A stretch of DNA of 64,000 nucleotides from Gammaproteobacteria bacterium (GCA_024644945.1 JAHEGU010000006.1:39143-103142); one strand, 5' to 3'. Positions 4,073 to 34,128 are shown, counted from the stretch's first letter. A program made the numbers and translations. The notes: generated by a model from the letters alone, not told the origin.

Positions 4073-4080
4073 ACAATTTA

Positions 4081-4881: not shown

Positions 4882-4939
4882 ATCTATGCTTTTAAGATGG
4901 TACTCTGGCGGAATACTGCTGAGCGGCTGCACATAAGGA

Positions 4940-5467: not shown

Positions 5468-5479
5468 TACATGTTTTAA

Positions 5480-5493: not shown

Positions 5494-5512
5494 CTTTACA
5501 GCTGTTTCTGCG

Positions 5513-5541
5513 TTGAACAGACAGGGCTGTATAGCTATAAC
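5513..5541 (+). promoter_or_regulatory. candidate sigma70 promoter for boxCBA (TTGAAC-N17-TATAAC)
   Basis: -35 TTGAAC at 5513-5518, a 17-nt spacer, and -10 TATAAC at 5536-5541, about 55 nt upstream of the boxC ATG at 5596. Confidence 0.4.
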
Positions 5542-5595
5542 CATTTCTGCTTGTCTTCTAATAGCCGAGCCGCCCACAACCCACAACGACTAGCA

Positions 5596-7245: not shown

Positions 7246-7280
7246 GATTTATACAATTTTATATACGAGAGAATTCAATC

Positions 7281-8723: not shown

Positions 8724-8737
8724 GGAAGAAAAACACA

Positions 8738-17676: not shown

Positions 17677-19887
17677 TTAATTCTGGACGGTTCTTTTTTG
17701 GTTTATCAACGCCAGCAATTCAGCTGCCGCTTCAGCATCACACATCGCTCTGTGATGCGACTCAAGACTAATTTCAAATCTTTCACACAAATTTTTGAGG
17801 CTGTAGGATTTGAACCCTGGATACCATTTACGCATCTGCGCACAGCTGCACAAGGTCGGCCGTTGATAGGTCTGTTGTAATCGTCGATATTCGTCCCCTA
17901 TAAAACTATAGTCAAATCGAACGTTATGGGCAACAAAAACCGCTCCCTCGGTGAACGCCCTGAAATCTTCTGCGATCTCGGCAAATACAGGTGCATCAGC
18001 AACCATTTTATTATTGATTCCTGTTAGATCAGTGATATTTCGCGGTATCGAGCGACACGGATTGATCAAGGACTGCCAACGGTCGATCACTTCACCATGC
18101 TGCAATTTCACAGCGGCGACCTCAGTAATTCGATTCGACGCTGACCGTCTCCCAGTGGTTTCAATGTCTACCACCACATAAATTTGTTCAGGATCAACCA
18201 CCCACTTAATTCGATTGACCTCTACCGGAAATCCTGCCTGCTCCATTGCCACAAATTGCTTCAGCTGGTTACGGCGAAGCTGGTCACCTTCAGCCTTTAT
18301 TTCAATGAAGCGTGCTCCCTTATGCTCAATCACCAGTAAGTCTGGAAAACCCGAGTGGTTGCCAGCGTAGTCCTGGGCCATGCGGCGAAGAATAACGGCT
18401 ACCGCACTTGAAGCGACGTTAGGAAGAAATGCGCGAATTTCGTCCATCATTTTGGAATTCCAACGGAAGATGCTGTTTGCAGTGCCGTACTCTCGAGTGA
18501 CGGTAGCAAGTATTGTCCGCATTGTAGCGTCGGTATCTTTTAGACCGGATAGAATTTTCTCGATCTTGGAATTAAATCGTGCATAGAATGCGCCGGTTTC
18601 TAAATTTTTCGGACGTTTTTCAAAATCATTAAAGATCGCAGAAGCCTCATCGTTATAAAGTAATTCCCAAAACAGCAGGCCAAATAATTTCTTCCACAAT
18701 CTGTTTTCAGTATGAAACACCTGAGCGCCATAAGACCGAAAGTAGTCGGCAGCGCCTTGCTCGGGAGCATCGCGATGACATTCATCGAGATTGATGACTG
18801 CGCCACTACGCAAAATATCGGTAATCCGGCTGGTGCGTTTCTTGTGGAACTTGCGTTGGTAAAAATCTGTTGCAAAGAGCAGTTCTTCATCACATGACGG
18901 ATCGTCAATCATACGCTCCAATCGAGTGCGAACCTTGTCGCGCTCTCCACTTACATACATTAGCCGGGTCAGCCGTTCGCTTGCTGGCCAGCCATCGGAT
19001 CGCCGGTATATTCGAACTGCCAGCGCCTGGTTTCCGTATTTCTCCACTTGTTCCCCGAGCTGGTAGATAGCTTGCTGACGTAATAGACTCGATTGTTCTC
19101 CGATGGCATCTGGCCAGGTGATGATACTGTCTGCAATCGATTCATAGTCCTTAGGTTCTATAGACCGGACATCACTTAATTTTTGGCAATAGAACCAGGT
19201 GCTCATTGCGGAGTCTTTATCGTCAAAGCGAGGCTTGAACGTTTTCTTAAAACCAGAAGTTTTGACTACACCCAGGTCGCGCAAAGTGAATCGAGATAAA
19301 CCCGATTCAAACTTTCCAAAATATAGAAAGAGTAGATAACCGATCTGCTCACATCTCGTTTGCACCACATAGGGTTCCAGAGCTGGCGCCATGCACGGAT
19401 GCTTGAAACTCACATTGCCCTGGGCAAATTCGACCAGGGTCGACTTGGGCCAGCTACGACGGTAGCTACCTGGAGAACACTGGTGGCTGAGCACATCCAG
19501 TAGCGCATCACGTGTTATCAATTCGAACCAGTGTTTAAGATCATCCTGAGCCACCGATCTAGAAAAACCATATTCTCTCAATCGCGCCAATTGTGCCGGA
19601 ATGTCATCGATCTCAGGATACTTGAACCGTCGGCTGTCAAACAGGCGACCACGCCGATTCAGCATTCGAACATAGAGACATTGGGCATTGCCATTGAGAA
19701 GCCTAAAATCGTCTATGAAACTTGCATGAGTCGGCTCCAACACATGGGTATACCGGTCCTCAATCACCCCAAGAAATTCGTTGAAGTGATCAAGGTAATA
19801 TCGCACCGGCAACTCCGGTGTTGCTGGATTTTGGGAAGGTGGCAGAGTCACCCGGGCTGATTCTGGAAATGGCATCGCTGGCACCAC
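17677..19887 (-). CDS. FAN1-like VRR-NUC nuclease fused to a C-terminal DEDDh (DnaQ/epsilon-like) 3'-5' exonuclease
   Basis: 736 aa. FAN1-type N-terminus (VRYYLDHFNEFL..., LYVRMLNRRG). VRR-NUC core GFPDLLVIEHKGARFIEIKAEGDQLRRNQ. Then VVDIETTG (ExoI), AHNVRFDYSF (ExoII) and HHRAMCDAEA (ExoIII). The start is either the GTG at 19887 or the ATG at 19875. Confidence 0.8.
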   Translation of the reverse strand: MVPAMPFPESARVTLPPSQNPATPELPVRYYLDHFNEFLGVIEDRYTHVLEPTHASFIDDFRLLNGNAQCLYVRMLNRRGRLFDSRRFKYPEIDDIPAQLARLREYGFSRSVAQDDLKHWFELITRDALLDVLSHQCSPGSYRRSWPKSTLVEFAQGNVSFKHPCMAPALEPYVVQTRCEQIGYLLFLYFGKFESGLSRFTLRDLGVVKTSGFKKTFKPRFDDKDSAMSTWFYCQKLSDVRSIEPKDYESIADSIITWPDAIGEQSSLLRQQAIYQLGEQVEKYGNQALAVRIYRRSDGWPASERLTRLMYVSGERDKVRTRLERMIDDPSCDEELLFATDFYQRKFHKKRTSRITDILRSGAVINLDECHRDAPEQGAADYFRSYGAQVFHTENRLWKKLFGLLFWELLYNDEASAIFNDFEKRPKNLETGAFYARFNSKIEKILSGLKDTDATMRTILATVTREYGTANSIFRWNSKMMDEIRAFLPNVASSAVAVILRRMAQDYAGNHSGFPDLLVIEHKGARFIEIKAEGDQLRRNQLKQFVAMEQAGFPVEVNRIKWVVDPEQIYVVVDIETTGRRSASNRITEVAAVKLQHGEVIDRWQSLINPCRSIPRNITDLTGINNKMVADAPVFAEIAEDFRAFTEGAVFVAHNVRFDYSFIGDEYRRLQQTYQRPTLCSCAQMRKWYPGFKSYSLKNLCERFEISLESHHRAMCDAEAAAELLALINQKRTVQN

Positions 19888-19938
19888 TCCACGTCAATTG
19901 TTTTTGAGTTCTCAAAATAGAGAACAAATTGACCTATG

Positions 19939-20628
19939 TCAACCGTTTATTGACCAGTCCACAGGTTTCAGGCCATGCTGTTCCAGCCATTTATTACTCT
20001 TTGAGAAATGACCGCAGCCGAAGAATCCTCGATGCGCTGACAGCGGTGATGGATGCGGCGCCTTCAAAATCAAGTGTTTGTGCGGGTCTATGAAGTGGCC
20101 TTTCTTCTGCGCATAACTGCCCCAAAGCAGAAAAACAAGGCTGTCGCGCTGCTGGTCGAGGGCCTGAATGGCTCGGTCGGTGAATTGCTCCCAGCCCTTT
20201 CCCTGATGCGATCCTGCACGATTGCGTTCAACCGTGAGCGTAGCATTTAACAGTAATACACCCTGGGCGGCCCAACCTTGCAGACAACCGTTGGTCGGCC
20301 CGGAAATTCCAAGATCACTCCGAATCTCCTTAAAGATGTTCAGCAGCGATGGTGGAAATGGCACACCCGGAAGAACCGAAAAACAGAGCCCGTGCGCCTG
20401 TCCCGGCCCGTGATACGGATCTTGTCCCAGGATCACAACCTTCACCCGATGAAATGGTGTCGAGTTAAAAGCGTTGAACCAGTTATCGCTTGCAGGGTAA
20501 ATTATTTTGCGTTGAGATTTTTGTTGCTTCAGGAATGTTTTTAGCGACAACATATAAGGTTGCTGGAATTCATCCTCCAGCACCGCCAGCCATGAGGGCT
20601 CCAGTTCTATTGATCGATCAGTGTTCAA
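19939..20628 (-). CDS. ung: uracil-DNA glycosylase (family 1)
   Basis: 229 aa. [18 protein letters not shown] and [13 protein letters not shown] motifs. Apparent TTG start. Confidence 0.9.
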
Positions 20629-20921: not shown

Positions 20922-21716
20922 TCAAGCCACATCATGGGCTGCCAGAAATTTACGAATATGTCGAGCAAGATTATCAGGTTGCTCCACCGAGGGCAGATGC
21001 CCAGCGGAGGCAATCCTTTCATACCATGAGCCCTGAATCAGTAGCGCAAGGGATTCCACTACCTCGGGAGGTGTAGCGCCGTCTTCTTCTCCGCATATAC
21101 ACAGAGACGGTAACTTAAGTCGCGCACTAGTCTCACTGAGGTCAGCATCCCTTATTGATGCACAGGTTGCTAAATATCCTGATGCGGATGTGTGGCTGAA
21201 CATGTTGCGATAACCGCGCAACTGGGCAATCTGATGTTCTCTAAAATGCGCCGAAAACCAGCGTTCCATAACCGAGTCGGCAATGCCGTCCAAACCATTG
21301 TCGCTGATCGCCTGCATCCTTTCGTTCCACATCTCCACAGTGCCAATTTTCTGAGCCGTATCACATAGCACCAGAGCCTGAACCCGCTCCGCCATGCGTG
21401 CTGCAAATCTTTGCGCAATCATTCCGCCGACGGACACCCCGCATAAAATTACGCGATCTATGCCCAGGTACTCCAGCAGCGCGATCAGGTCGTCGACATG
21501 ATCATCCATTGTATAAGGGCCTTCGGGCACATCCGACAAACCATGGCCACGCTTATCATATAACACTACCCTGTAATCGTTAACCAAATCCAATGCAACG
21601 TCCTGCCAAATCCTGAAGTCCGTTCCCAGAGCGTTGGCAAACACAATAGTGTGTTTGGAGGGATTACCTGCCACTCCGTAGTGGATGGTAACGTTATTTA
21701 CTTTAGCAAAACGCAT
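20922..21716 (-). CDS. alpha/beta hydrolase, 3-oxoadipate enol-lactonase (PcaD)-like
   Basis: 264 aa. The N-terminus (VTIHYGVAGNPSKHTIVFANALGTDFRIWQ) and GVSVGGMIAQ nucleophile elbow resemble PcaD-type lactonases/hydrolases. Confidence 0.65.
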   Translation of the reverse strand: MRFAKVNNVTIHYGVAGNPSKHTIVFANALGTDFRIWQDVALDLVNDYRVVLYDKRGHGLSDVPEGPYTMDDHVDDLIALLEYLGIDRVILCGVSVGGMIAQRFAARMAERVQALVLCDTAQKIGTVEMWNERMQAISDNGLDGIADSVMERWFSAHFREHQIAQLRGYRNMFSHTSASGYLATCASIRDADLSETSARLKLPSLCICGEEDGATPPEVVESLALLIQGSWYERIASAGHLPSVEQPDNLARHIRKFLAAHDVA

Positions 21717-21804
21717 AGCAGTTTCTTATGATGCCTAAACTAGGGTCTTAGATAGTTGTAAAATTCAACGATTAAATGACCGAGTACTGTTACTTAATGC
21801 GCGG

Positions 21805-22506
21805 TCAAATTCCAAGATACTTCGATTTCAATTCTGGTTGCGCCGCGAGCGCATTGGAATCTCCTTCCCATACTACGGTGCCTTTCGCAATAATGTAGTG
21901 TTTATCCGCTATTTTTGACAGATCATCAATATTCTTGTCGATCAGTAATATTGTCAGACCGGATTGTTTCAGCCGCTGCAACCGATTCCAAATTTCCTGT
22001 CGAATCAGTGGCGCCAGGCCTTCGGTAGCTTCATCCAGAATAAGCAGTCCGGGATTCAGCATCAGCGCACGCCCAATTGCCAGCATTTGTTGCTCGCCAC
22101 CCGAGAGCTGGTTGCCCATATTACCAAGTCTCGGTTTCAGAGTTGGAAAAAATTCCATCACCTTGTCGAGATCCCAGGAGTCGCTGGATTTTGAAAAATT
22201 TGCCGCGGTAGCAATCAAATTCTCTCGTACGCTTAGATTCGGGAAAATCTGACGTCCCTCGGGAACAAGCCCAATTCCCCGCTGGGCCACCACATGGGCC
22301 GGTTTTCCGCTAATATTCTCCCCGTTGAATCGGATTTCACCACTCTTCGGCGGTACCGTTCCCATTATCGAATTCACGGTGGTGGTCTTACCCATACCGT
22401 TACGACCGATCAATGTCGTCACCTTGCCCTGATCTAAAGTTAAAGTAATACCGAACAGCACCTGGATCGACCCGTAGAAGGTTTCTACATTGTGCAGCTC
22501 AAGCAT
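21805..22506 (-). CDS. ABC transporter ATP-binding protein (LivF type)
   Basis: 233 aa from the ATG at 22506, which overlaps the upstream gene by 8 nt (ATGCTTGA). Walker A GRNGMGKTT and signature LSGGEQQ. Confidence 0.9.
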   Translation of the reverse strand: MLELHNVETFYGSIQVLFGITLTLDQGKVTTLIGRNGMGKTTTVNSIMGTVPPKSGEIRFNGENISGKPAHVVAQRGIGLVPEGRQIFPNLSVRENLIATAANFSKSSDSWDLDKVMEFFPTLKPRLGNMGNQLSGGEQQMLAIGRALMLNPGLLILDEATEGLAPLIRQEIWNRLQRLKQSGLTILLIDKNIDDLSKIADKHYIIAKGTVVWEGDSNALAAQPELKSKYLGI

Positions 22507-23251
22507 GTTCCTCTCCCAAATAAGCCTGCTGCACATCTGAATTGTTGCGGATTTTTTCAACCGTATCTGTGGCGATAATATGGCCGTTAACCAGCACCGA
22601 TAGACTATCAGCTAAGGAGAAGACCGCGTCCATATCATGCTCAATCAATAGTATGGTTTTATCTCCCTTCAGCCTGCTCAGTATTTCCACCATACGAGCC
22701 GTTTCTTCCGAACCCATACCTGCCATTGGCTCATCCAACAGCAGCAGTTTGGGACCCATTGCCAGCGCCATGGCAACTTCCAGCTGACGTCTTTCACCGT
22801 GGGACACCTGGGCAGCAATCCGGTCGGCGCGATCGTCCAAACCGACTTCCACTAAACTTTTCATGGCGGCATCGATCATTTCACCGTCGCGCTTTACCGA
22901 CGCCCAGAAACGAAACGAGTGCCCCTCACTGCCTTGAACTGCCAGCATCACATTCTCCAGCAATGTCATCGGCATAATGACACTGGTGATCTGAAACGAC
23001 CGCGCCAGCCCTGCGCGGGCACGGCGGGCAGTTGAGTATCCAGTGATGTTCCGGCCTTCGAACTCTATTCGCCCACTAGTAGGTTTTAACTGACCTGAAA
23101 GCTGAGAGATCAAAGTCGTTTTTCCGGCACCATTGGGACCAATAACCGCGTGCACCTGACCTTGCTCCACGCTCAAATAGAGTCTGCTTGTGGCAATGAT
23201 CCCGCCGAAATTTTTATTCAGATCGGTGACCTCCAACAGCGGCTGATTCAC
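22499..23251 (-). CDS. ABC transporter ATP-binding protein (LivG type)
   Basis: 250 aa. Walker A GPNGAGKTT, and a LivG-like N-terminus LLEVTDLNKNFGG. Confidence 0.9.
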   Translation of the reverse strand: MNQPLLEVTDLNKNFGGIIATSRLYLSVEQGQVHAVIGPNGAGKTTLISQLSGQLKPTSGRIEFEGRNITGYSTARRARAGLARSFQITSVIMPMTLLENVMLAVQGSEGHSFRFWASVKRDGEMIDAAMKSLVEVGLDDRADRIAAQVSHGERRQLEVAMALAMGPKLLLLDEPMAGMGSEETARMVEILSRLKGDKTILLIEHDMDAVFSLADSLSVLVNGHIIATDTVEKIRNNSDVQQAYLGEEHA

Positions 23252-24210
23252 CCGCGCTCCTCCTCGCTATCGAATGCACTCAGCCATCCATGAATACCGC
23301 CTTTTCCAAACAGCACCAGGGCAATCAGCATCAGCCCAAATATCAGGTGCCAGTAGATCGTAATGCGGGACAGGAACTCTTCGAGAAATACAAATGCCGC
23401 GGTTCCCACCAGTGGACCGAAGAGCGTCCCTGCGCCGCCCATAACCACCATAAATATCAACTCACCGGAGCGAGTCCAGCCCATCATTTCCGGACTAATG
23501 AAACTGGTAAAGTTACCAAGCAGCATACCTGCTATGCCACAGATCACCCCGGAGATCACATAACAGCTGAGCCTATATCGATAAGTGCTATAACCGAGTG
23601 ACTGCATACGATCCTCGTTGAATCGTGAGCCAACGATTACCCGGCCAAAACGCGCATGCACCAGCCTATGAATGAAAAACAGCGTAATTAACAACACTGT
23701 AAAAATCCAGTAATACAGGGCCACCGGGCTATCCATACTAAGCCAGGTGGGGAACTCACTGCGCAGATAAATCACCAATCCGTCGTCCCCCCCATACTCT
23801 TCGAGACTGACAAAAGTGAAGTACACCATCTGACTAAATGCCAGCGTGATCATAATAAAGTAGACGCCCTTGGTACGCAGACATATCGCACCGGTCACCA
23901 GAGCGAAAAGGCCGCTGACCAGCACCGTTAGCCCGAGATGCAGCCAGCCATTGTAAAAATCATAGTAGGCAGGAATCCCAACACAGTATGCGCCGATACC
24001 TATATATGCTGCATGCCCCAGGCTGACCATACCTCCATAACCGAGAATAAGGTTGAGACTGAGCGCAGCGACCGCAAGAATCAGGCCCCGACTTAACAGA
24101 TCGAGATAAAACGGTTCATCGATTACGCTGAAAATCCAGGGTGCAATGGCGAGCAAGACCAGAAATCCGGTGTAAACAGTTGCGGAAACAGTTCTTGGCA
24201 GTATCCGCAT
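23248..24210 (-). CDS. branched-chain-amino-acid-type ABC permease (LivM type)
   Basis: 320 aa polytopic protein with ATGA overlap with the ATPase gene. Confidence 0.85.
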   Translation of the reverse strand: MRILPRTVSATVYTGFLVLLAIAPWIFSVIDEPFYLDLLSRGLILAVAALSLNLILGYGGMVSLGHAAYIGIGAYCVGIPAYYDFYNGWLHLGLTVLVSGLFALVTGAICLRTKGVYFIMITLAFSQMVYFTFVSLEEYGGDDGLVIYLRSEFPTWLSMDSPVALYYWIFTVLLITLFFIHRLVHARFGRVIVGSRFNEDRMQSLGYSTYRYRLSCYVISGVICGIAGMLLGNFTSFISPEMMGWTRSGELIFMVVMGGAGTLFGPLVGTAAFVFLEEFLSRITIYWHLIFGLMLIALVLFGKGGIHGWLSAFDSEEERG

Positions 24211-25133
24211 TACTTGCTGCCCGCGGGTGGAAACAATCCCTGGGGTCGGAATGCCAGCACCACTGCCATCAGGATATAGACCAGCATCGCCGAAAGTGCG
24301 GGAGCGGCAGTCTCCGCATACTTTGTCGGCATTGACAACTCGAGCACATCATCGAGATAGGATCGGCCGAGGGTATCCATTAATCCAATGATAAGTGCAG
24401 CGTAGAAGGCGCCCTTTATCGAGCCAATACCACCCACAATCACGACTACGAATGCAATGATGATAATTTCATTGCCCATGCCTATGCTGGCCTCGGTTAT
24501 TGGCGCGATCAACATCCCGGCAAAACCTGACATCGTGGCGCCGATCGCAAACACAATCAAAAAAAGTTTGTTGATGTTTACACCAAGTGCTTCCACCATG
24601 GTGCGGTTGGATGCCCCTGCTCTGATCAGCATACCGAGGCGTGTTTTCGAGACCATGATATAGAGAATGGCAGCAACCAGCAGTCCGCTCATAATGATTA
24701 CCAGCCGATATGTTGGTAACACAAGAGTGCCCAGACTGACCTGCCCGTTTAGTACTTCCGGCAACGGTATTGCCATCCCTGCCGCTCCCCAAACCATGTG
24801 GACCAGGGTATCAAAAACCAGAATCAGGCCAAATGTCACCAGCACATGATCAAGATGATCGCTGCGATATAACCTCCTTGCAATGAACCACTCCACCGCC
24901 GCACCGATGGCAAATGTGCATATCAGCCCGACTACAATTCCAGACAGCAGTGAGCCCGACATCGATACCACAGTGCCGCAAAAGTAGGCGCCGATCATGT
25001 AAAACGATCCGTGGGACAGATTGATGAAATCCATGATCCCGAATATCAGGGTCAGCCCGGAAGCGAGCAGAAACAGAAGCAGGCCAAGCTGCAGGCCGTT
25101 CAGCACCTGAGTGATCAGCAGATTCCAGTCCAT
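24210..25133 (-). CDS. branched-chain-amino-acid-type ABC permease (LivH type)
   Basis: 307 aa. N-terminus QVLNGLQLGLLLFLLASGLTLIFG is typical of LivH. TAATG overlap with the next gene. Confidence 0.85.
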   Translation of the reverse strand: MDWNLLITQVLNGLQLGLLLFLLASGLTLIFGIMDFINLSHGSFYMIGAYFCGTVVSMSGSLLSGIVVGLICTFAIGAAVEWFIARRLYRSDHLDHVLVTFGLILVFDTLVHMVWGAAGMAIPLPEVLNGQVSLGTLVLPTYRLVIIMSGLLVAAILYIMVSKTRLGMLIRAGASNRTMVEALGVNINKLFLIVFAIGATMSGFAGMLIAPITEASIGMGNEIIIIAFVVVIVGGIGSIKGAFYAALIIGLMDTLGRSYLDDVLELSMPTKYAETAAPALSAMLVYILMAVVLAFRPQGLFPPAGSK

Positions 25134-25241
25134 TACTAGAAAGTATTATTAATCAGAGTAATCCAGGTATAAAGTAAAAGCGCGCCGCCACCGGCTTGCG
25201 GTGAGGGCGCGCTCCCTGGCCTTGATCAACCGATTGCTAAG

Positions 25242-26435
25242 CTATAGTGCGCACTCGGCAGCGTATGGATCCTGGTGATTCTCTAACACCGTGCTCACGA
25301 TCTTGGTAGTCCATCTACCCTGATCATCTTTTACCACCTCTCGCAGATAGAAGTTCTGGATCGGCATATGATTGTTACCATAAGTATACTTACCACGCAC
25401 CGAATCGTAGTCAGCTGCTTTCATCGCAGCTCGAAGTCCGTCCATGTCACCAAGATTTCCGTCCACTGCTTCTACCGCGCTCTTTATCAGCATTATAGAA
25501 TCATAAGCCTGCGCCGCATAGAAGGAAGGATAGCGATCATACTTAGCGAGGAAACCGTCGACAAATTTCTTATTCGCTGCGATATCCAGGTCAGGTGACC
25601 AGAACTGCGTCATCTTAGATCCCAATACACCTTCAAGACCACCCGCCTGCAATTTTGGCAATGCAATCGCATCAACTGTAAATACAGTATATAGCGGCAT
25701 AACACCCTGAAGCCCAGCCTGCTGATACTGCTTGATAAACGCACCACCCGCCTTGCCTGGATAAAAAATGAATATTCCCTCAGCGCCTGAAGCTTTAGCC
25801 TTAGCTAACTCGGCAGAAAAATCCAACTGAGCATCTGCGCCCCACTTGGTGAAATCCTTGCCGACCACATTACCTTTAAAAGTTTTTTCCACACCAGCGA
25901 CCATATCCTTCCCGGCAGCATAATTAGGCGCCATGATATACAGAGATTTGACACCCTGTTGCGAAAGATACTCACCCATCGCCATCGGCGTCTGGTCATT
26001 CTGCCATGAGGTTGAGAAAAAGTTTTCGTGACACAATTCACCAGCAATCTTGGATGGTCCAGCATTTGCGCTGATCAGAAACTTGCCAGCGTCCAGGGCT
26101 GATTTCATTGACGCAAGCAGCACATGTGACCAGATGTAGCCCACCACGAAATCCACATCATCCTGCTTCACAAGTTTGTCGGTTTTCTGTTTTCCGATAT
26201 CCGGTTTAAAACCGTCATCTTCCATGATCAGTTCCACATCAAGACTGCCCATCTTGTTGTCGATATGTTCGAGAGCCAGATTCACAGCATCCTGTATGTC
26301 GGCGCCGATGACACCTGCAGGCGTTGTGAGTGTGGTGACAAAACCGATTTTGACACTATCGGCCTGAGCCATACCGGCTCCAGCCATGGCGGTCGCCAAC
26401 AAAGCGCTGCCAACTAGTTTAGGGATTATTTTCAC
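25242..26435 (-). CDS. ABC substrate-binding protein (LivK/LivJ, periplasmic binding protein type I)
   Basis: 397 aa from the GTG at 26435, with GAGGAA 7 nt upstream. Signal peptide VKIIPKLVGSALLATAMAGAGMAQA, then DSVKIGFVTTLT typical of the family. Confidence 0.85.
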   Translation of the reverse strand: MKIIPKLVGSALLATAMAGAGMAQADSVKIGFVTTLTTPAGVIGADIQDAVNLALEHIDNKMGSLDVELIMEDDGFKPDIGKQKTDKLVKQDDVDFVVGYIWSHVLLASMKSALDAGKFLISANAGPSKIAGELCHENFFSTSWQNDQTPMAMGEYLSQQGVKSLYIMAPNYAAGKDMVAGVEKTFKGNVVGKDFTKWGADAQLDFSAELAKAKASGAEGIFIFYPGKAGGAFIKQYQQAGLQGVMPLYTVFTVDAIALPKLQAGGLEGVLGSKMTQFWSPDLDIAANKKFVDGFLAKYDRYPSFYAAQAYDSIMLIKSAVEAVDGNLGDMDGLRAAMKAADYDSVRGKYTYGNNHMPIQNFYLREVVKDDQGRWTTKIVSTVLENHQDPYAAECAL

Positions 26436-26615
26436 GTGAGAATTCCTCGCAGTACGTATGTAATAGATATATTGTTTTCTAATGAATTTGAGCAGGACCT
26501 TAACGAGGCGAGCAGATGCCTGCCTTCGGACCCGTTGATCATATATTAGCGTCTTTTGCCACGCTTTACACCTGTTCAGCTGACATACCGCCTGCAACCA
26601 GGCCCTATGCTCCTC

Positions 26616-28070
26616 TTAGAACAGGGAAAAATACTCCGTGTGCTCCCAATCAGAAACGGTGTGCATGAAACGGGTCCATTCCGCTCGCTTTATATGAGCG
26701 TAATAGTCTACAAAATCCTGCCCGAGTTTGCTGCGGTAGAACTCGCTTGACTGAAATGCTTCCAATGCCTGGAACAAGCTTTCAGGTAGCCTCGCCGCGT
26801 CGCCCTGGTACGGCCTTTCTGATGCAGTCGGTGCTTGCTTTTCCTGTTCAATCCCATCAAGGCCGCTCAATACCTGAGAAGTGATGTAGAGGTAGGGATT
26901 TGCCGCAGGTTCACCGACCCGATTTTCAACCCGTGAATTAGGATTCCCGCTATCACAAAGCGAACGCACCATAGCGCCGCGATTGTCCTGTCCCCATTGC
27001 ACCCTGTCAGGGGCCAGGGCAAAAGGCTGGTAGCGCTTGTAACCATTGATCGTCGGGGTCGTTAGCAGGCAACTTTCGAGGCCATGGTCCAATATTCCAG
27101 CAATCCATTGCGCACCCAACTGTGACAGTACTTCACCCTCATCGGGCACGAACATGTTGCGTCCTGAATCAAGTGCGACAACTGACTGGTGAAGGTGCCA
27201 GCCGTTGCCCATTGCATTTTCAAGATTGGGCCTGCACATGAACGTTGCGTGGTAACCCTCGCGTCTGCAGACCTGTTTCACCATACTCCGAAACAAAGTC
27301 ATATTATCGGCTGTCCGCAAGGCGGTATCCGGGTGAAATGTCACTTCGAACTGGCTCGGCCCAAACTCAGTTTCCAGTGATCTGAGCGGCAGATTAAGCG
27401 CGTCAGCATGATACCGGATCAGATCCATTACCGGTTCAATCTGATCATAATTCTGTTCAGTGAGGTATTGGTAACCGTGCGACAGTAACCGCGTCGCAGG
27501 CGGCGCATGTGGTTTTCCTGAATGGTGGTGCTCCAAATTCAGGTCGGTCAGCTGATAGACATAGAACTCCACTTCGAGCCCGCACATCAGATCAAGATTC
27601 CGTTGATGCAGTCGTTCCAGAGCACGCTTCAATATTCCCCGGGTACACAACTCGAGTGGCGAACCATCACTAAAATACAAATCACCAAGCAGCCATCCCG
27701 TCGATTTTGCCCATGGAAGTATTTTGAATGTACTTGGATCGGGCAGCATCAAAATGTCCGATGCGCCAGTCAACAGGCCTTTACCAAATCCTGCGTCCTC
27801 GCCCCAGACCGGAAACACCGTAGTATGAGAGGTATCCTTGAGCAAAAGTGTGCTGGTTATGGAGACACCGCTTTCAATTAGGCTTGCCAGGTCCGCCGCC
27901 ATGACCACCTTGCCCCGCAGCACGCCGTGTTGATCGGCAAATGAAATTCTTACGGTCTCCACACCGTGCGCCGATACAATTTCGAGCAACTCCTTGGCCG
28001 CCTGCTTCCGATCTGAATTCCGAAAACCATGAGGCGAGGCAAATCCCTCTGAATCGGTCGAGATATTCAT
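26616..28070 (-). CDS. glutamine synthetase family protein, gamma-glutamyl-amine ligase type (PuuA/GmaS/IpuC/TdnQ-like)
   Basis: 484 aa. GS beta-grasp N-domain (VETVRISFADQHGVLRGK) and GS catalytic domain (GLEVEFYV, NGWHLHQS, ENRVGEPAANPYL). Its start lies 2 nt after the Rieske gene stop. Confidence 0.8.
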   Translation of the reverse strand: MNISTDSEGFASPHGFRNSDRKQAAKELLEIVSAHGVETVRISFADQHGVLRGKVVMAADLASLIESGVSITSTLLLKDTSHTTVFPVWGEDAGFGKGLLTGASDILMLPDPSTFKILPWAKSTGWLLGDLYFSDGSPLELCTRGILKRALERLHQRNLDLMCGLEVEFYVYQLTDLNLEHHHSGKPHAPPATRLLSHGYQYLTEQNYDQIEPVMDLIRYHADALNLPLRSLETEFGPSQFEVTFHPDTALRTADNMTLFRSMVKQVCRREGYHATFMCRPNLENAMGNGWHLHQSVVALDSGRNMFVPDEGEVLSQLGAQWIAGILDHGLESCLLTTPTINGYKRYQPFALAPDRVQWGQDNRGAMVRSLCDSGNPNSRVENRVGEPAANPYLYITSQVLSGLDGIEQEKQAPTASERPYQGDAARLPESLFQALEAFQSSEFYRSKLGQDFVDYYAHIKRAEWTRFMHTVSDWEHTEYFSLF

Positions 28071-28072
28071 GC

Positions 28073-29407
28073 TCAGGCTGCCGAAGAATCCAGGTCAGCC
28101 GGCCACGTAGCCCTGGAACGTCTCTGCTTCTCAGCCTTGACCCACTCAGTCTGCCAGTCCTCGTTGCCGGTAATCGCGTCGATCGCCATCGGTCCGTGTA
28201 TATCTGAAAGTCCTTGAGCGATCCCTCGCATCGGTAAATCATCATCCTGACCCTGGTCGACGCGTTCGATCATCTCCTTAAGCAGCCGGCGATAGCTGAT
28301 AATTCCCACGTCACTGCGCCCCAGGTGTTCATCAGTGCGATCCTGTATGGGCCCCATTGATTCGCAGGCCCATTGGTCATGAACGTTGATATCCTGGCCC
28401 ATCCCAGTAAAAGTCAATGTCCGCTGCTCGTCGGGATTATAGTGATACTGATTGGTCCGATTTTTGAGCGGCACGTAGTCTGGCAACGTGTGCTCCATTA
28501 GTCTCTGAGCACGCATGGTGTCTTTATCCACCGCGTCACCGAAGCTGGTAAACATCGAGTACCAATAACAACTAAAGTCATCCACCGGTACATGCCATTG
28601 GGTAATATTCATATGCTTTGACATGGGAATGGTGATTGCACATGGAAATATCTGGTTAGTGACTCTTACATGCATACGATCCGCATCCAGCTGTCTCAGA
28701 CTGAGCAGGCGCAAACCATATTCCGTTGATTCAACTTCTATTTTCGGCCGAGGATATTCCCGCAATAGCCTGGTCATCGGAATCTCTGTATCGGCCGCAG
28801 CATCCCGAAACTGCTTGCCATAACTATCGGCCGGATCCTCATCTTCGAGAAACCGATGCAAGAATGAAGCGTGAGCCGGATCAATTCCGACTTCCAAAGC
28901 TTGCAACCAGTTACACTGCCACAGCCCTTTAAAGGCAAACACATGGCTGTCTGGCGCACGAAAACAATCGAAGTCCGGAAATTCGGGTGGCTCACCAGGT
29001 CCCATGTAAGCAAAGATCACCCCGTTTATTTCTGTCACGGGATAGTTGGTTGCTCTGATCTGCTCATGCATCCTGCTTTTTTCAGGCTCGGCGGGCGTTT
29101 CAAGACATCGACCTTGCACGTCAAACAACCAGCCATGAAATGCGCAGCGCAATCCACTATCCTCAAGTCGGCCGTAACAAAGATCGGCGCCTCGATGCGG
29201 GCAGTGTCGCTGCAACAATCCAGCCTCGCCACGATCATCCCGAAACAATACCAGATCTTCACCCATCAACCTTACCGGCACCACCGGCCTGTCAACTTTC
29301 AGTTCGTCGCTGAGTGCCACTGGCATCCAATATCGACGCAGCAGTTCACCCGCAGGCTGGCCTTTACCAGTCAGTGTCAGGTATTCGTTCTGTTCACGGC
29401 TCATCAT
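28073..29407 (-). CDS. Rieske non-heme iron oxygenase, homomeric phthalate/KshA-type alpha subunit
   Basis: 444 aa. Rieske motif CPHRG-x16-CAFHGW and mononuclear iron motif DPAHASFLH. No beta subunit or reductase gene is adjacent. Confidence 0.85.
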   Translation of the reverse strand: MMSREQNEYLTLTGKGQPAGELLRRYWMPVALSDELKVDRPVVPVRLMGEDLVLFRDDRGEAGLLQRHCPHRGADLCYGRLEDSGLRCAFHGWLFDVQGRCLETPAEPEKSRMHEQIRATNYPVTEINGVIFAYMGPGEPPEFPDFDCFRAPDSHVFAFKGLWQCNWLQALEVGIDPAHASFLHRFLEDEDPADSYGKQFRDAAADTEIPMTRLLREYPRPKIEVESTEYGLRLLSLRQLDADRMHVRVTNQIFPCAITIPMSKHMNITQWHVPVDDFSCYWYSMFTSFGDAVDKDTMRAQRLMEHTLPDYVPLKNRTNQYHYNPDEQRTLTFTGMGQDINVHDQWACESMGPIQDRTDEHLGRSDVGIISYRRLLKEMIERVDQGQDDDLPMRGIAQGLSDIHGPMAIDAITGNEDWQTEWVKAEKQRRSRATWPADLDSSAA

Positions 29408-29623
29408 GGCCGTGGTCCTCTCTGTTGATATTTTTTGGAATCATACTGAAATCGACAATGCCTGTCATTGTGGTCCGCTTTCGGCAAAACCAAAATTACC
29501 GGCAATCCTTAATCTGTATTCAGCCGGATCTGGTAGGAGTTTGCTAAAAGTCTGGGGTCGAACTCTTCTCGTTCAGTTGACGGCTGTATAATTTGGATTA
29601 AATTTGCTGGCTAGAATCCGCAC

Positions 29624-30490
29624 ATGAGCAATCTTGAAGGCGTCTGCACCCCTATATGCAGCGTATTTACAGAAGACGGCAGCCGTATCGACGAATCAGC
29701 GCAGTGTCGACATATCGATTCATTATTGGGTGCGGGTGTTCACATCATAGCTGCCTGCGGCGGCACGGGAGAATTTTCCTTTCTCACCCGCGATGAAAGG
29801 ATCAGCCTCACCGAGCTGATCGCCCGTCGAGTCAATGGCAAGGCCAAACTGCTTGTGCATGCCTCAGCGGTCATGACCGAGGAAACCATTGATTACGCGA
29901 GGCACGCGCAAGATTGCGGTGCAGATGGGCTTTTAATACTGCCGCCCTACTTTGAAGGTCCGACTCTTGCGGGTGTTCACGAGCATTATGAAAAAGTCGC
30001 TGCAGCGGTACAGATAGAAATCATGGCCTACAATATTCCAGCCCACACCGGCATTGATCTGCAACCGGAATTCGTCCAGCGGTTAATGGAAATTGACAAT
30101 ATTACCTGCATCAAGGATAGCACCGGCGACTTCATACGAATTCAGCAATTGATCAACGCGGGCATCAATGTGTTCAATGGAGCAGATCCACTAATGCTGC
30201 ATAGCCTGATGACAGGTGCACGAGGCTGTTTCTGGGGCACCTCCAACGCCATTCCAGCAGATGCCGTCAAGCTCTATCACCTTTGCCAGGACAAACAGTG
30301 GGAGCAGGCGCGACTGCTGTGGCAGAGAATATATAAGGTAAACGATTTCGTTTGGAATAACCCATTTAATCCTAGCGTCAAAGCGCTGGCAAACTTATTG
30401 GGACATGATCTGCGCCACTGTCGACGGCCTGTCCAGCCCTTATCTGACGATCAACTGGCATCTTTGAGTTCACTTGTAGACGACTTTTGA
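29624..30490 (+). CDS. DHDPS/NAL (DapA) family lyase, candidate pyrroline-4-hydroxy-2-carboxylate deaminase
   Basis: 288 aa. GGTGEF, an active-site Lys context ITCIKDSTGD, and Y in YNIP. Context includes a proline-racemase-family gene and an FAD dehydrogenase. Confidence 0.75.
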   Translation: MSNLEGVCTPICSVFTEDGSRIDESAQCRHIDSLLGAGVHIIAACGGTGEFSFLTRDERISLTELIARRVNGKAKLLVHASAVMTEETIDYARHAQDCGADGLLILPPYFEGPTLAGVHEHYEKVAAAVQIEIMAYNIPAHTGIDLQPEFVQRLMEIDNITCIKDSTGDFIRIQQLINAGINVFNGADPLMLHSLMTGARGCFWGTSNAIPADAVKLYHLCQDKQWEQARLLWQRIYKVNDFVWNNPFNPSVKALANLLGHDLRHCRRPVQPLSDDQLASLSSLVDDF

Positions 30491-30588
30491 AAGCGTGAGC
30501 AAGGCAGCGTCTCAATTCATTTTTCTTCTCGCCCGATTGTTTTTATTCATTCCTAAAGATTGCCAATTGACCTCAAAATCAGGTTGCA

Positions 30589-31827
30589 ATGACTGACCGA
30601 CCCAGTGTTCTGGTTATAGGAGCTGGGATTGTAGGCATTGCCTGCGGCATTCATCTTATAGAACGAGGGGCAGAAGTGACCCTGGTCGATCCAGAACCAC
30701 CGGGCAGTTTGACATCATCCGGGAACGCAGGGGGTCTGGGATCTACCGAGGTCATGCCAATTGGGGCACCTGGAGTAATTAAACGCATACCGGGCTGGTT
30801 ACTCGATCCTCTTGGGCCACTCTCCCTACGGTGGCGGCACTTACCTTCTATGTTGCCGTGGCTGTTGCATTTTCACCGCGCAAGCGGAAGACACGAGGTT
30901 GAAAGAATTTCAAAAGGCCTGTCTAGCCTGCTCAGGCGGTCCATGCAGGACACCCGCGAGCTTGTTCATCGCGCAAATCTGCAGAACTTGATCACCGAAA
31001 GAGGCGCGATTACGGTCTATGAAAACGAAAAAAGTCGCCAGCTAGATGCGCTTGAATGGCAAATAAAAAGGGAGCGTGGGATTATTGTGGAAGCGCTCGA
31101 TGCTGCCAGCATCAAACAAATGGAGCCGGCATTGCATAATGTGTCCTGTGGTTACTTCACACCCCAGTGGTGCAACACTACGAGTCCAATCAGATTGGCT
31201 GAATCTTTAGCATCCTTTCTGCATTCAATGGGGGCGAAGTTTGTTAGAGGTCGTGTTGACGCGTTTCAAGAAGATGATCCGTTGCGTCCCGTTATGCTCA
31301 ACAGCACGGTTAGCAGCTGGGATAAAGTAATTGTGGCGGCAGGAGTCTGGTCGGCAGAGTTGTGTCACCTGCTCAACGAGTCCGTGCTGCTGGAGTCAGA
31401 ACGAGGATACAACACTACTCTTTCTGATCCTGGGATTAACCTGAATCGTCAGATTATTTTTGGCGATCGTAAGTTCGTGGCCACGGAAATTGAGGAAGGT
31501 CTGCGGATTGGCGGTGCTGCTGAGTTTGCGGGAATTTATGCGCCACCGGACTATCGACGCAGCGAGCGTTTACTAGAGATTGCCAAAACCTATTTACCAG
31601 ATCTCAATATTTCTGATGGCAAAAGCTGGATGGGTCATCGTCCGTCAACACCAGACTCACTTCCAGTGATCAGCAAGTCAATTCGACACCCAGAGCTTTA
31701 TTACGCTTTTGGACATGGACACATAGGGCTGACCACCGCAGCGACTACCGGACATCTGATAGCGCAACTCTCTATGGGAGAAAAACCTGATATTGATCTT
31801 TCTCCATATTCTATCGGCAGGTTTTAG
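30589..31827 (+). CDS. FAD-dependent oxidoreductase (DAO/DadA family), candidate D-hydroxyproline/D-amino-acid dehydrogenase
   Basis: 412 aa. N-terminal VLVIGAGIVGIACGIHL...VTLVD dinucleotide fold and C-terminal FGHGHIGLT. Confidence 0.8.
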   Translation: MTDRPSVLVIGAGIVGIACGIHLIERGAEVTLVDPEPPGSLTSSGNAGGLGSTEVMPIGAPGVIKRIPGWLLDPLGPLSLRWRHLPSMLPWLLHFHRASGRHEVERISKGLSSLLRRSMQDTRELVHRANLQNLITERGAITVYENEKSRQLDALEWQIKRERGIIVEALDAASIKQMEPALHNVSCGYFTPQWCNTTSPIRLAESLASFLHSMGAKFVRGRVDAFQEDDPLRPVMLNSTVSSWDKVIVAAGVWSAELCHLLNESVLLESERGYNTTLSDPGINLNRQIIFGDRKFVATEIEEGLRIGGAAEFAGIYAPPDYRRSERLLEIAKTYLPDLNISDGKSWMGHRPSTPDSLPVISKSIRHPELYYAFGHGHIGLTTAATTGHLIAQLSMGEKPDIDLSPYSIGRF

Positions 31828-32005
31828 AGCCCCTCTCTTTAAAGGACATTGCATCGGCTATCGCTGACATATCAAAACGAATGCGAGAATTTGATTTTTA
31901 CTGTGCACCCTGGATGGTGACGTCTTTAACTTGCCCTCGTTTTCAAGTTGCCAGGAAAATTCGGCTTTTAACAATACGGCAATGGATCTGATTGCGATCC
32001 TTGTT

Positions 32006-32317
32006 CTATTTTCGACTTGCTTCCTTTTCTTCGACCTTAACTACTGCGTCAATTTTACGTACGATACATCTTGTTCCCTTTATTCTTGACCACTGTTCTT
32101 TTCTTGGAGCACGGTCATACATTGGTATGGGCGTTTCCAGATGTTTGCTATGGGCGATACCGGCTTCCGTCATTTCGGGGAAGTCGGGTTGCATAAATCC
32201 TTTGGGATATTTCTGATCGCGAATACTCTCCCGCAAAGTACAGACTTCCAATTTATTGCTTTTTGTCTCTTTCTTCACGGTCACTTCTTCTTTACTGCAG
32301 CTTTGAAACTGAAACAT
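32006..32317 (-). CDS. orphan hypothetical protein (P2), lysine-rich
   Basis: 103 aa if started at the ATG at 32317, in the +1 frame relative to P1 and overlapping its 3' end by 26 nt. Weak RBS. I recognise no family, and the coding status is uncertain. Confidence 0.3.
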   Translation of the reverse strand: MFQFQSCSKEEVTVKKETKSNKLEVCTLRESIRDQKYPKGFMQPDFPEMTEAGIAHSKHLETPIPMYDRAPRKEQWSRIKGTRCIVRKIDAVVKVEEKEASRK

Positions 32318-32663
32318 CCATCTCAGCAAGTGTAGGAACATGCTTCCACGCAATCTCTGATAAAACCGGACCTTCTGATTCGGTAACCAGTCGGGGCTTC
32401 TGTGCCAATGCCAGCCGAACAAGTTTGCGGGTCAGCAGGTAAAGTTCTATCTTGCTTAAAGGTCTACTCGCGACTGCCGCACGAGCGTCGAACAAAAGTT
32501 CGCTCGTTCCGTACCGAGCGTCGAGATCGTCCAGCATCGAGAGGAATTGGTCTTTAGAGCTTGCGTCCGCTTTCTCCATTGCAGGGAAATCCAGCTCGTT
32601 CACCACGGAGCAGGAAAGTTTGGCGAGGTCGCGTATGTCTTGTTTTTTTATCGGTTGGTTCAT
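32292..32663 (-). CDS. orphan hypothetical protein (P1)
   Basis: 123-aa ORF with an ATG start inside an AT-rich 1.3-kb insert. I recognise no family. Confidence 0.4.
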   Translation of the reverse strand: MNQPIKKQDIRDLAKLSCSVVNELDFPAMEKADASSKDQFLSMLDDLDARYGTSELLFDARAAVASRPLSKIELYLLTRKLVRLALAQKPRLVTESEGPVLSEIAWKHVPTLAEMDVSVSKLQ

Positions 32664-32742
32664 CGTTTTATTCTCATTGAGCTATCCGTAATGGACGTTT
32701 TATATTGTCAGCCTCTATCTTCTGAGGGATGCCTGGTGTGGT

Positions 32743-32797
32743 AAAAGAAAGGGAGGGCTCGTTAACATCAACCGAGGTCTATGCAACGAGTCCCTCC
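32743..32797 (-). terminator. orphan intrinsic-terminator-like hairpin (12 bp stem with 1-nt bulge, 21-nt loop, TTTCTTTT tail) upstream of P1
   Basis: On the minus strand, GGAGGGACTCGTT (32797-32785) pairs with AACGAGCCCTCC (32763-32752), followed by C TTTCTTTT (32751-32743). No minus-strand gene lies immediately upstream. Confidence 0.45.
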
Positions 32798-33126
32798 TTA
32801 CAAGCACCACTCTCACCACAAGAATCTTAGGTACCGCCTTTCCCAGGCTTCACTCTCTGAATTTTACGAAGCAAGAAGCGTACCAACTATTTTTATAAGC
32901 CTAGATATAAGTCGATTTCTCTCTCTATATTATTGTTTTATATATACTAAATAGATTTTATAATAGGAGTAAAATTTTACCGTACTAACCCATTGTTCAC
33001 CTGATCGGACCTGACAACTCGCGATACCCATGTGATAATTTTTGTCACTTCACGCCCTCCAGTAAGGGTCAATGCGCCCAAACTTGCGCTTGCCCATCAC
33101 TTTGGCAACAGGGTTTAATAGATGCC

Positions 33127-34128
33127 ATGGTGAACAATACCTTCGAGTGTATCGACGCCCACACGTGCGGTAATCCCGTCCGGGTCGTTATTGGCAATGG
33201 TCCTGTACTAGAAGGCAAAGATATGAGCACTCGACGCCAGCATTTTCTGCGCGAATTTGACTGGATTCGCACTGGACTTATGTTTGAGCCCAGAGGACAC
33301 GATGCGATGTCAGGCTCGATTGTTTACCCCCCGGTTACCTCGGATGGGGATTTATCGGTGCTGTTTATAGAGGTGAGCGGTTGCCTGCCAATGTGTGGGC
33401 ACGGCACCATCGGCACCGTTACTGTCGCGCTTGAGCGTGGTCTGGTTGCACCTCGAAGACCAGGCAATCTGCTGCTGGACACCCCAGCTGGTCGGATCGT
33501 GGCAAGATACCAAATCGAAGACGAATACGTTTCGTCCGTATCACTCACCAATGTGCCCTCATTTTGTCATACCGTTGGCGCACGGGTCAGGGTACCGGAC
33601 ATGGGAGAGCTTAAAATGGATATCTGCTACGGCGGGAATTTTTACGCCATCATCGAACCTCAAGACGGTTATGAAGATTTGAACCGGTTATCTGTAGATG
33701 ATATCCGCCGTCTGAGCCCCTTGATTCGAACTCAACTTAACCAGGCATTTGAAGTCAATCATCCGCAGGACAATACGATAAGCAGAGTCAGCCACATTAT
33801 GTGGACCGGCAAAGCGGTAAATTCCTCATCAAGCGCGCGCAATGCGGTTTTCTATGGTGACAGAGGCATCGATCGATCTCCCTGCGGCACCGGCACTTCG
33901 GCTCGCATGGCCCAGCTGGTTGCACGCGGAGAGCTTGGGATCAACCAGCCATTTATTCATGAGAGCATCATCGGCAGCCAATTTACCGGGTATGCGATTG
34001 AGCATGTAAAAGTGGATCAATACGATGCCATCGTGCCAACAATTTCAGGTTGGGCCAGGATCACAGGTGAGAATAAAATTATCATCGACACCCGTGATCC
34101 CTATGCACATGGTTTCCTGCTGACCTGA
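33127..34128 (+). CDS. proline racemase family enzyme, Cys/Cys type (4-hydroxyproline 2-epimerase or proline racemase)
   Basis: 333 aa. AHTCGNPVRVV N-terminus. Both catalytic cysteines are present (LPMCGHGTIG and DRSPCGTGTSA). Confidence 0.85.
   Translation: MVNNTFECIDAHTCGNPVRVVIGNGPVLEGKDMSTRRQHFLREFDWIRTGLMFEPRGHDAMSGSIVYPPVTSDGDLSVLFIEVSGCLPMCGHGTIGTVTVALERGLVAPRRPGNLLLDTPAGRIVARYQIEDEYVSSVSLTNVPSFCHTVGARVRVPDMGELKMDICYGGNFYAIIEPQDGYEDLNRLSVDDIRRLSPLIRTQLNQAFEVNHPQDNTISRVSHIMWTGKAVNSSSSARNAVFYGDRGIDRSPCGTGTSARMAQLVARGELGINQPFIHESIIGSQFTGYAIEHVKVDQYDAIVPTISGWARITGENKIIIDTRDPYAHGFLLT

Follow-up and report, generated by a model that had tools for sequence, protein, structure and literature searches.

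Which substrate calls for a Rieske oxygenase, a relative of glutamine synthetase (GS), an importer and a hydrolase at the same time? Eight co-directional genes (29407 to 20922, minus strand) encode this set in the window, by which we mean the whole 64,000-nucleotide stretch analysed here (GCA_024644945.1, JAHEGU010000006.1:39143-103142), from a marine member of the Arenicellales (Gammaproteobacteria) that has not been cultured. The first two encode the Rieske oxygenase and the GS-like ligase; five for an ATP-binding cassette (ABC) importer and one for an alpha/beta hydrolase follow. By analogy to related systems, and with somewhat better than even confidence, we propose that the operon serves the uptake and deamination of an acidic aromatic amine, most probably 4-aminobenzoate (pABA), which would be converted via a gamma-glutamyl anilide to protocatechuate. 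A first-pass annotation of the sequence had suggested that an imported amine is glutamylated and then oxidised by the Rieske enzyme. This core idea is supported by the conservation of the gene pair and by NpaA1 and DcaQ as nearest relatives of the ligase; an aliphatic or proline-related amine and product release by the hydrolase, which belonged to the same suggestion, are not.

The Rieske oxygenase and the GS-like ligase

Reading of the open reading frames (ORFs) together with Pfam and NCBIfam searches placed all eight genes on the minus strand exactly where the first-pass annotation had them. The operon begins with a gene for a single-subunit, phthalate-family, SadA-like Rieske oxygenase (28073-29407, minus strand; 444 aa, PF00355 and PF19301 LigXa_C), whose ATG is preceded at 8-9 nt by a Shine-Dalgarno-like GAGAGGA. 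Directly after it follows the gene for the GS-like protein (26616-28070, minus strand; 484 aa, PF00120 Gln-synt_C at 286.7 bits), a predicted gamma-glutamyl-arylamine ligase of the SadB/AtdA1/NpaA1 type ('GoaS'). The junction, read directly as TGAGCATG, separates the stop codon of the first gene from the start codon of the second by 2 nt. A promoter-like site (29440-29468, minus strand; ATGACA-17-TATGAT, 10 of 12 consensus matches) precedes the Rieske gene by about 30 nt. This weak consensus match is only suggestive; scans of the region for promoters and terminators gave results no better than shuffled sequences, and the count of promoter-like sites was not above that of the shuffles.

Among solved structures, the Rieske protein was closest to isophthalate dioxygenase (IPDO, 9INA) and phthalate 4,5-dioxygenase (PDO, 7FJL), both at about 227 bits over residues 1-388, with DdmC and NdmA as distant matches. 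Its catalytic domain is of the LigXa_C type, with no match to PF00848 and no beta-subunit gene in the operon. Across 86 loci the Rieske ligands C69/H71/C88/H91, the bridging D176, the iron site H179/H184/D344 and two arginines, R238 and R248, were invariant. In a sequence alignment these arginines correspond to PDO Arg231 and Arg244, respectively, and PDO Arg244 anchors the substrate carboxylate. The equivalent of PDO Arg207, placed at position 213 by sequence alignment only, is R in the window and varies between K, R and Q across the family, so that the substrate geometry is left unfixed by these data. Where PDO has Ser179 and Ser182, the window protein has Pro and Ala.

The ligase scored well below the cut-offs for GlnA (TIGR00653, 225.7 against 429.15 bits), PuuA (NF045547, 233.3 against 650 bits) and GmaS/type III glutamate-ammonia ligase (TIGR03105, 240.3 against 469.6 bits). 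Compared with solved structures it matched NpaA1 (8WWU/8WWV/8X6Z) at 437 bits (E = 7.5e-130), whereas true GS reached at most 191 bits, GmaS 150 bits (7CQL) and 135 bits (9QUR), and PA5508 89 bits. The reading as a bona fide glutamine synthetase, which the first-pass annotation had named as the outcome that would overturn it, is thus not supported. NpaA1 is a gamma-glutamyl ligase for 1-naphthylamine and aniline (PMC11335346), and shares 42.5% identity with the window ligase; DcaQ of Variovorax SRS16, encoded in dcaQTA1A2B (GS-like, GATase, alpha subunit, beta subunit, reductase), shares 45.5%. Among plasmid genes, the aniline and chloroaniline clusters ranked just below Sad-type partners as relatives of the ligase. 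On these comparisons it is closest to arylamine-type gamma-glutamyl ligases rather than to true GS, PuuA or GmaS. The hydrophobic aryl-pocket loop of NpaA1 (V68'-M81', including F75') is replaced in the window family by a polar, cationic loop, in which K78-D79, at the position of NpaA1 F75'-D76', is invariant (85/85 sequences), H82 occurs in 75 of 85, and position 83 is R or K in 78 of 85. A polar loop with K78 would fit an anionic substituent on the amine.

Conservation of the gene pair

We surveyed one genome per species, taking the best 80 of at least 597 loci together with loci reached via plasmids and encoding contigs (loci are cited below by L numbers). The Rieske/GS-like family turned up in no fewer than 597 genomes, each standing for one species and many belonging to marine or pristine-soil organisms, and both proteins had thousands of homologues at 57% identity or more across Alpha-, Beta- and Gammaproteobacteria. 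Two metagenome-assembled genomes (MAGs) carried proteins 94% and 93% identical to those of the window, with identical synteny. Co-occurrence of the two genes in other genomes had been proposed as a check by the first-pass annotation, and in 84 of the 87 loci whose sequence extended far enough the Rieske gene was indeed followed immediately, on its own strand, by the GS-like gene. This pairing is far beyond chance.

About 34 loci have an IclR regulator gene upstream in divergent orientation, and 10 from Betaproteobacteria have a GntR regulator gene; apart from the pair and the regulators, gene content was variable among the examined loci. Clustering of neighbouring ORFs, which was noisy in high-GC loci owing to antisense ORFs, mainly returned genes whose synteny is confined to particular lineages, among them gyrB, a class I (Trp/Tyr-type) tRNA synthetase and PfkB. 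Transporters beside the pair were HAAT ABC systems (about 25 loci), TRAP systems (about 6), TctC and NMT1-type ABC systems, all of which are organic-anion carriers. A ferredoxin gene adjoined the pair in 13 loci, a reductase gene in 9 and a GATase1 gene in 2 (Polaromonas, Azoarcus). The Polaromonas JS666 locus, with a Rieske enzyme 58.8% identical to that of the window, runs GntR, Rieske, GS-like, ferredoxin, ferredoxin reductase, five ABC genes and GATase1; it shows the order of the window plus redox and amidotransferase parts of which the window has none.

A characterised system with the same two genes is the sad operon of Hydrogenophaga intermedia PBC, where sadA encodes 4-aminobenzenesulfonate 3,4-dioxygenase, sadB a glutamine synthetase homologue and sadC a ferredoxin (PMC5632844). 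SadD is grouped with SadA and SadB as proteins of 4-aminobenzenesulfonate deamination, which together yield 4-sulfocatechol, and the natural substrate was considered by the authors to be probably a natural close analogue of 4-aminobenzenesulfonate (PMC5632844). In the sulfanilate degrader Novosphingobium resinovorum SA1, plasmid pSA3 encodes a pair that is 55.5% (Rieske) and 50.5% (GS-like) identical to that of the window, with ferredoxin, reductase, IclR and maleylacetate reductase genes nearby and insertion sequence (IS) elements on the flanks. The SA1 Rieske protein has the window residue at 27 of 29 checked positions; the exceptions are position 180, S in SA1 and A in the window, and position 213, K in SA1 and R in the window. 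Judged via SA1 as a proxy for H. intermedia SadA (WP_009515254.1) and SadB (WP_009515256.1), the window operon is predicted to be of the SadAB-type arylamine dioxygenase kind. A homologue search seeded with the Polaromonas Rieske enzyme returned relatives at 79% identity or more only, with no Hydrogenophaga entry.

The importer and the hydrolase

Downstream of the ligase gene the operon encodes a HAAT-family periplasmic binding protein of putative benzoate-derivative type (ORF 25242-26597, minus strand; PF13458, 244.6 bits). Its probable real start is a GTG at 26435, as called in a 97%-identical relative, giving a gene at 25242-26435 and a protein of 397 aa with a signal peptide. Then follow, all on the minus strand, two BPD_transp_2 permeases (24210-25133 and 23248-24210), a LivG/UrtD-like ATPase below every equivalog cut-off (22499-23251) and a LivF/UrtE-like ATPase with its ATG at 22506 (21805-22506). 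Successive genes overlap by 1 nt (permeases), 4 nt (second permease and first ATPase) and 8 nt (the two ATPases), and the analysis confirmed the gene content, the gene order, these overlaps and the 2-nt gap between the Rieske and GS-like genes as first annotated.

A urea or branched-chain amino-acid transporter was considered and rejected, since every component scored under its equivalog cut-off: the binding protein reached 71 against 493 bits for UrtA and 54 against 477 for the LivJ type, and the remaining components 180/250 (UrtB), 145/296 (UrtC), 227/304 (UrtD) and 215/286 (UrtE). The best solved relatives of the binding protein were 4EVQ/4EVR, 4EY3, 4EVS and 4F06, which we take to be binders of benzoate and 4-hydroxybenzoate from Rhodopseudomonas palustris; the structures reportedly come from work by Michalska et al. 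in 2012 on benzoate-binding proteins of this organism. By these matches the binding protein resembles binders of benzoate derivatives. RPA0668 binds benzoates (PMC3223731).

The last gene of the operon (20922-21716, minus strand) starts 88 nt past the last transporter gene and encodes an alpha/beta hydrolase that passes the equivalog cut-off for 3-oxoadipate enol-lactonase, PcaD (TIGR02427, 320.2 against 255.85 bits); its best structural match was a 3-oxoadipate enol-lactonase (2XUA, 181 bits). We therefore rejected a gamma-glutamyl amidase, and with it the earlier suggestion that the hydrolase releases the oxygenation product: the protein is predicted to be a bona fide PcaD, a downstream enzyme of a ring-cleavage pathway. 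PcaD serves both the catechol and the protocatechuate branch. In arylamine dioxygenation the nitrogen departs spontaneously after ipso-dioxygenation. Other hydrolases (dienelactone hydrolase, Abhydrolase_1, Abhydrolase_3) flank the pair in unrelated lineages (L035 12779-13534, L062 3887-4774, L084 9028-9915). These recurrent hydrolases may hint at an accessory hydrolytic step, either lactone hydrolysis or cleavage of an amide or ester of a pABA conjugate.

Product, substrate and predicted pathway

A locus from a Rhizobiaceae MAG (L012) points to the product. It encodes on one strand a PcaR/PobR-type regulator, the Rieske and GS-like pair, PcaD (340.8 against a cut-off of 255.85 bits), PcaC (200.6/155.7), PcaH (307.6/296.4) and the start of PcaG, the latter recognised from its translated motif only; the PcaD directly after the GS-like gene is 52.5% identical to that of the window. 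The succession of the pair and pcaD-pcaC-pcaH-pcaG suggests protocatechuate as the product, and protocatechuate would in turn imply that the substrate is 4-aminobenzoate, which has a carboxylate where sulfanilate has a sulfonate, or with lower probability 3-aminobenzoate.

What the analysis shows is which genes are present, that the pair is conserved, how the proteins are related and which pathways lie alongside; from this we infer the following route, in which the substrate, the electron donor and the use of a gamma-glutamyl intermediate by a homomeric enzyme are all deduced. The benzoate-type ABC importer would take up the substrate, which the GS-like ligase would convert with ATP and glutamate to a gamma-glutamyl anilide (gamma-glutamyl-4-carboxyanilide). 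The homomeric phthalate-type Rieske dioxygenase would then grip the distal carboxylate on its conserved R248/R238 face and dihydroxylate the ring at the nitrogen-bearing and a neighbouring carbon. The resulting geminal amino-alcohol is expected to collapse spontaneously, with loss of the glutamyl-bound nitrogen and formation of protocatechuate, which would enter the beta-ketoadipate pathway including the PcaD of the operon. Electrons would come from a reductase encoded elsewhere, possibly the BoxA of a box cluster 11 kb away.

Several observations weigh against this reading. At position 83 the window ligase carries T instead of the R or K seen in 78 of 85 relatives, and orthology to the Hydrogenophaga SadA and SadB rests on the N. 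resinovorum proxy. The first-pass annotation was right that the operon encodes no oxygenase beta subunit, reductase or amidotransferase; a ferredoxin gene is likewise absent from it, and tblastn searches with the Polaromonas and Xanthobacter genes found no match to the ferredoxin, reductase or GATase anywhere in the 64 kb; nor is a protocatechuate dioxygenase encoded in the window. The link to pca genes consists of one locus with pcaDCHG (L012) and the Arenicellales PcaD, and 3-aminobenzoate would likewise yield protocatechuate. At least six other loci have the pair beside or inside a box cluster, which formation of protocatechuate leaves unexplained. Furthermore, gamma-glutamylation has been demonstrated in the two-subunit aniline and naphthylamine systems and not in the homomeric Sad-type one, and literature searches found no report of a pathway combining pABA, gamma-glutamylation and a dioxygenase.

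Association with box clusters

The window encodes a complete-looking box cluster of the aerobic benzoyl-CoA pathway (13-11310, plus strand) about 11 kb from the pair, comprising an OYE/2,4-dienoyl-CoA-reductase-like protein, an enoyl-CoA hydratase, benzoate-CoA ligase (2537-4072), an alpha/beta hydrolase, a DUF309 protein, BoxC (5479-7245), BoxB (7281-8723), BoxA (8738-9925), a thioesterase and a regulator with helix-turn-helix and shikimate-kinase-type domains (10414-11310), all on the plus strand. Other genomes hold the two closer together: in L093 the pair and boxCBA run on without a change of strand, as do the pair and benzoate-CoA ligase, hydrolase and boxCBA genes in L016; the box cluster adjoins the pair in L047, L054 (Bradyrhizobium elkanii) and L059, and part of the cluster adjoins it in L012. 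BoxA, with 4Fe-4S and FNR-type reductase domains, is a candidate donor of electrons to the Rieske enzyme. A stand-alone homologue in L043 (13074-14294; 4Fe-4S dicluster and NAD_binding_1), 57% identical to the BoxA of the window, is encoded between the GS-like and ABC genes, with no boxB or boxC nearby. BoxA-type reductases may thus serve the Rieske enzyme where ferredoxin and ferredoxin reductase genes are unlinked. Alternatively, the association may reflect mere islands of aromatic-acid catabolism.

A broader generalization is possible, which we put forward tentatively and regard as somewhat doubtful: the pair, found in about 600 or more species of marine and soil Proteobacteria, would be a general aerobic route from pABA to protocatechuate via the gamma-glutamyl anilide, with sulfanilate degradation as a recent recruitment and a BoxA-type 4Fe-4S/FNR reductase as the donor where SadC/SadD-type genes are lacking. 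Such a donor would explain the repeated fusion of the pair with box clusters.

Also in the window, a flavin mononucleotide-dependent alpha-hydroxy-acid dehydrogenase (45149-46336) adjoins a thiamine pyrophosphate enzyme (43437-45197; together 43437-46336, minus strand). The two resemble mandelate dehydrogenase and benzoylformate decarboxylase, and would supply benzoate to the box pathway.

Alternative explanations

The same mechanism might apply to another natural aminoaromatic acid, namely 3-aminobenzoate, anthranilate, aminosalicylate, aminophenylacetate or an aminohydroxybenzoate, with protocatechuate, catechol or another diol as product. Against anthranilate, dedicated dioxygenases for it are already well known. 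We consider a substrate from this group unlikely overall, if worth serious attention: all evidence for an acidic arylamine supports these compounds equally, PcaD is common to the catechol and protocatechuate branches, L012 is also compatible with 3-aminobenzoate, and the variable residue at the PDO Arg207 position does not fix the geometry. In favour of pABA, it is the most widespread natural arylamine acid and the direct carboxylate analogue of 4-aminobenzenesulfonate, the para-substituted compound that is the sole characterised substrate of the family (PMC5632844). That the window enzymes act on 4-aminobenzenesulfonate itself or on another arylsulfonate-amine, giving 4-sulfocatechol as in Hydrogenophaga and Novosphingobium, is quite improbable in our judgement. 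The identities to the SA1 pair and the shared residues at the checked Rieske positions would fit, as would the NMT1/TauA-type (sulfonate-like) ABC system that adjoins the pair in Xanthobacter; the wide occurrence of the family in marine and pristine-soil genomes would not, and the original study itself argued that the natural substrate is not the xenobiotic (PMC5632844). Moreover, no 4-sulfocatechol genes were found in the window, the PcaD and pcaDCHG contexts indicate ordinary beta-ketoadipate chemistry, and the IS elements flanking the SA1 pair are as expected of a recruited module.

The repeated proximity to box clusters (L093, L016, L047, L054 and L059, and at a distance of about 11 kb in the window) raises the question whether the pair instead feeds the box pathway, for example by glutamylation of benzylamine and oxidative N-dealkylation to glutamine and benzaldehyde, and thence benzoate. 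N- and O-dealkylation are common in this Rieske superfamily, to which the distant matches DdmC and NdmA belong. This route is nevertheless very improbable: it has no precedent, the Sad precedent being a ring dioxygenation, an anionic substrate is what the TRAP, TctC and benzoate-type binders point to, L012 argues for protocatechuate, and the box link can be explained by a shared BoxA reductase (L043) or an island of aromatic catabolism. We give the slimmest chance to the model of the first-pass annotation, in which an imported aliphatic or proline-related amine is glutamylated, mono-hydroxylated by the Rieske enzyme and the product released by the hydrolase. Its hint at a proline- or pyrroline-related substrate came from divergently oriented upstream genes at 29624-34128 (plus strand), which were correctly recognised as a typical hydroxyproline catabolic set (DHDPS-family, DAO, Pro_racemase-family). 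Outside near-identical Arenicellales genomes these genes do not adjoin the pair; 80 other loci gave no match to them, and we see no conserved link to the Rieske operon. The IpuC/P450 system is a precedent for aliphatic amines, and some hydrolase (PcaD, Abhydrolase_1, dienelactone hydrolase or Abhydrolase_3) adjoins the pair in several lineages. Yet the ligase resembles arylamine ligases far more than it does PuuA or GmaS, the binding protein belongs with the benzoate binders, the hydrolase scores above the PcaD cut-off, and the nearest relatives of the Rieske enzyme are ring dioxygenases of aromatic acids; binding protein, Rieske active site and neighbouring pathways all point to an aromatic acid. 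N-demethylation of gamma-glutamyl-methylamide or another alkylamide for nitrogen scavenging was likewise dropped in view of the arylamine-type ligase and the benzoate-type binding protein.

Further genes in the window and in related loci

Opposite to the hydroxyproline set, two small unannotated ORFs are located at 32006-32663. Directly downstream of PcaD (17677-20628, minus strand) the window encodes a FAN1-HTH/VRR-NUC/RNase T fusion nuclease of 736 aa and a UDG-family protein. The domain combination of the nuclease is an unusual DNA-repair architecture, and a related MAG (L086) has the same neighbours there. A second Rieske oxygenase, with a Ring_hydroxyl_A domain (53710-54831), is encoded together with an MttB-family methyltransferase (51036-52589) and a DUF6940 protein (51036-54831, minus strand); an aminomethyltransferase (41933-43045) and an ornithine cyclodeaminase-family gene (47207-48304) are found near this set. 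Taken together, these genes look like betaine or methylated-amine catabolism. A 1004-aa fusion of carrier-protein, AMP-binding and acyltransferase domains (58921-61935, plus strand), beside an ArsP-type permease, has the architecture of an Aas-like acyl-ACP synthetase/lysophospholipid acyltransferase. In the locus of Xanthobacter dioxanivorans (L082), a 491-aa protein with a faint DUF3604 match (6921-8396) is encoded between the NMT1-type ABC transporter and the ferredoxin, ferredoxin reductase, Rieske and GS-like genes; upstream of it are genes for GMC oxidoreductase and aldehyde dehydrogenase.

Implications

If pABA is the substrate, a physiological role would be assigned to a very widespread and essentially unannotated gene pair, whose current labels are 'aromatic ring-hydroxylating dioxygenase subunit alpha' and 'glutamine synthetase family protein'. 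The question raised in Hydrogenophaga about the natural substrate of the sulfanilate dioxygenase would be answered, and the pair would be a place where marine and soil communities consume pABA, a traded precursor of folate. The strategy of glutamylation followed by dioxygenation would reach beyond xenobiotic anilines and include a natural metabolite as well as homomeric Rieske enzymes. Annotators should avoid calling such loci glutamine synthetases, phthalate dioxygenases, or transporters of urea or branched-chain amino acids.

Comparison with known systems

PuuA (putrescine), GmaS (methylamine), IpuC (isopropylamine, with a P450) and GlnA3/GlnA4 share the ATP-dependent gamma-glutamyl ligase chemistry of the GS fold with the window ligase, and in the Ipu pathway the glutamylated amine undergoes oxidation. 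The partner oxidases of these aliphatic gamma-glutamylation pathways belong to other enzyme families than the Rieske enzyme of the window. With PDO and IPDO of Comamonas testosteroni KF1 (7FJL, 9INA) the oxygenase has the Rieske ligands, the mononuclear-iron ligands and the bridging Asp in common, although the alignable parts are only moderately similar; PDO and IPDO take free dicarboxylates as substrates, work without a ligase and depend on a PDR-type reductase.

Closer parallels are found in AtdA1-A5, TdnQTA1A2B, DcaQTA1A2B and NpaA1-A5, which likewise combine a GS-like gamma-glutamyl-arylamine ligase with a Rieske dioxygenase, and glutamylation followed by dioxygenation is established for such aniline- and naphthylamine-type systems (PMC11335346). 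They employ an alpha/beta oxygenase, a GATase-like hydrolase (AtdA2/TdnT) and a dedicated reductase, whereas the oxygenase of the operon is homomeric and of the LigXa_C type, and the window encodes no counterpart of the rest. The ligases also differ in the substrate loop, which is polar with an invariant Lys in the window family and hydrophobic with F75' in NpaA1.

The nearest counterpart is the Sad system, with which the window shares a one-subunit phthalate-family Rieske gene and a GS-like gene immediately after it. The Sad reaction is the deaminating ring dioxygenation of a para-substituted acidic aniline (PMC5632844). Unlike the Sad cluster, the window is without sadC or sadD equivalents in the 64 kb searched, its operon ends in PcaD instead of sulfocatechol genes, and its host is a marine Arenicellales bacterium for which the likely substrate is a carboxylate instead of a sulfonate. 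The first-pass annotation had regarded the enzyme combination as different from known systems. This view has to be revised: SadA/SadB has the combination of a single-subunit Rieske enzyme and a GS-like protein (PMC5632844), and homologous operons of the same order carry a ferredoxin, a reductase and even a GATase. The combination was thus already known and the chemistry is not new. What is new is the wide spread of the family, the question of its natural substrate and a marine Arenicellales member.

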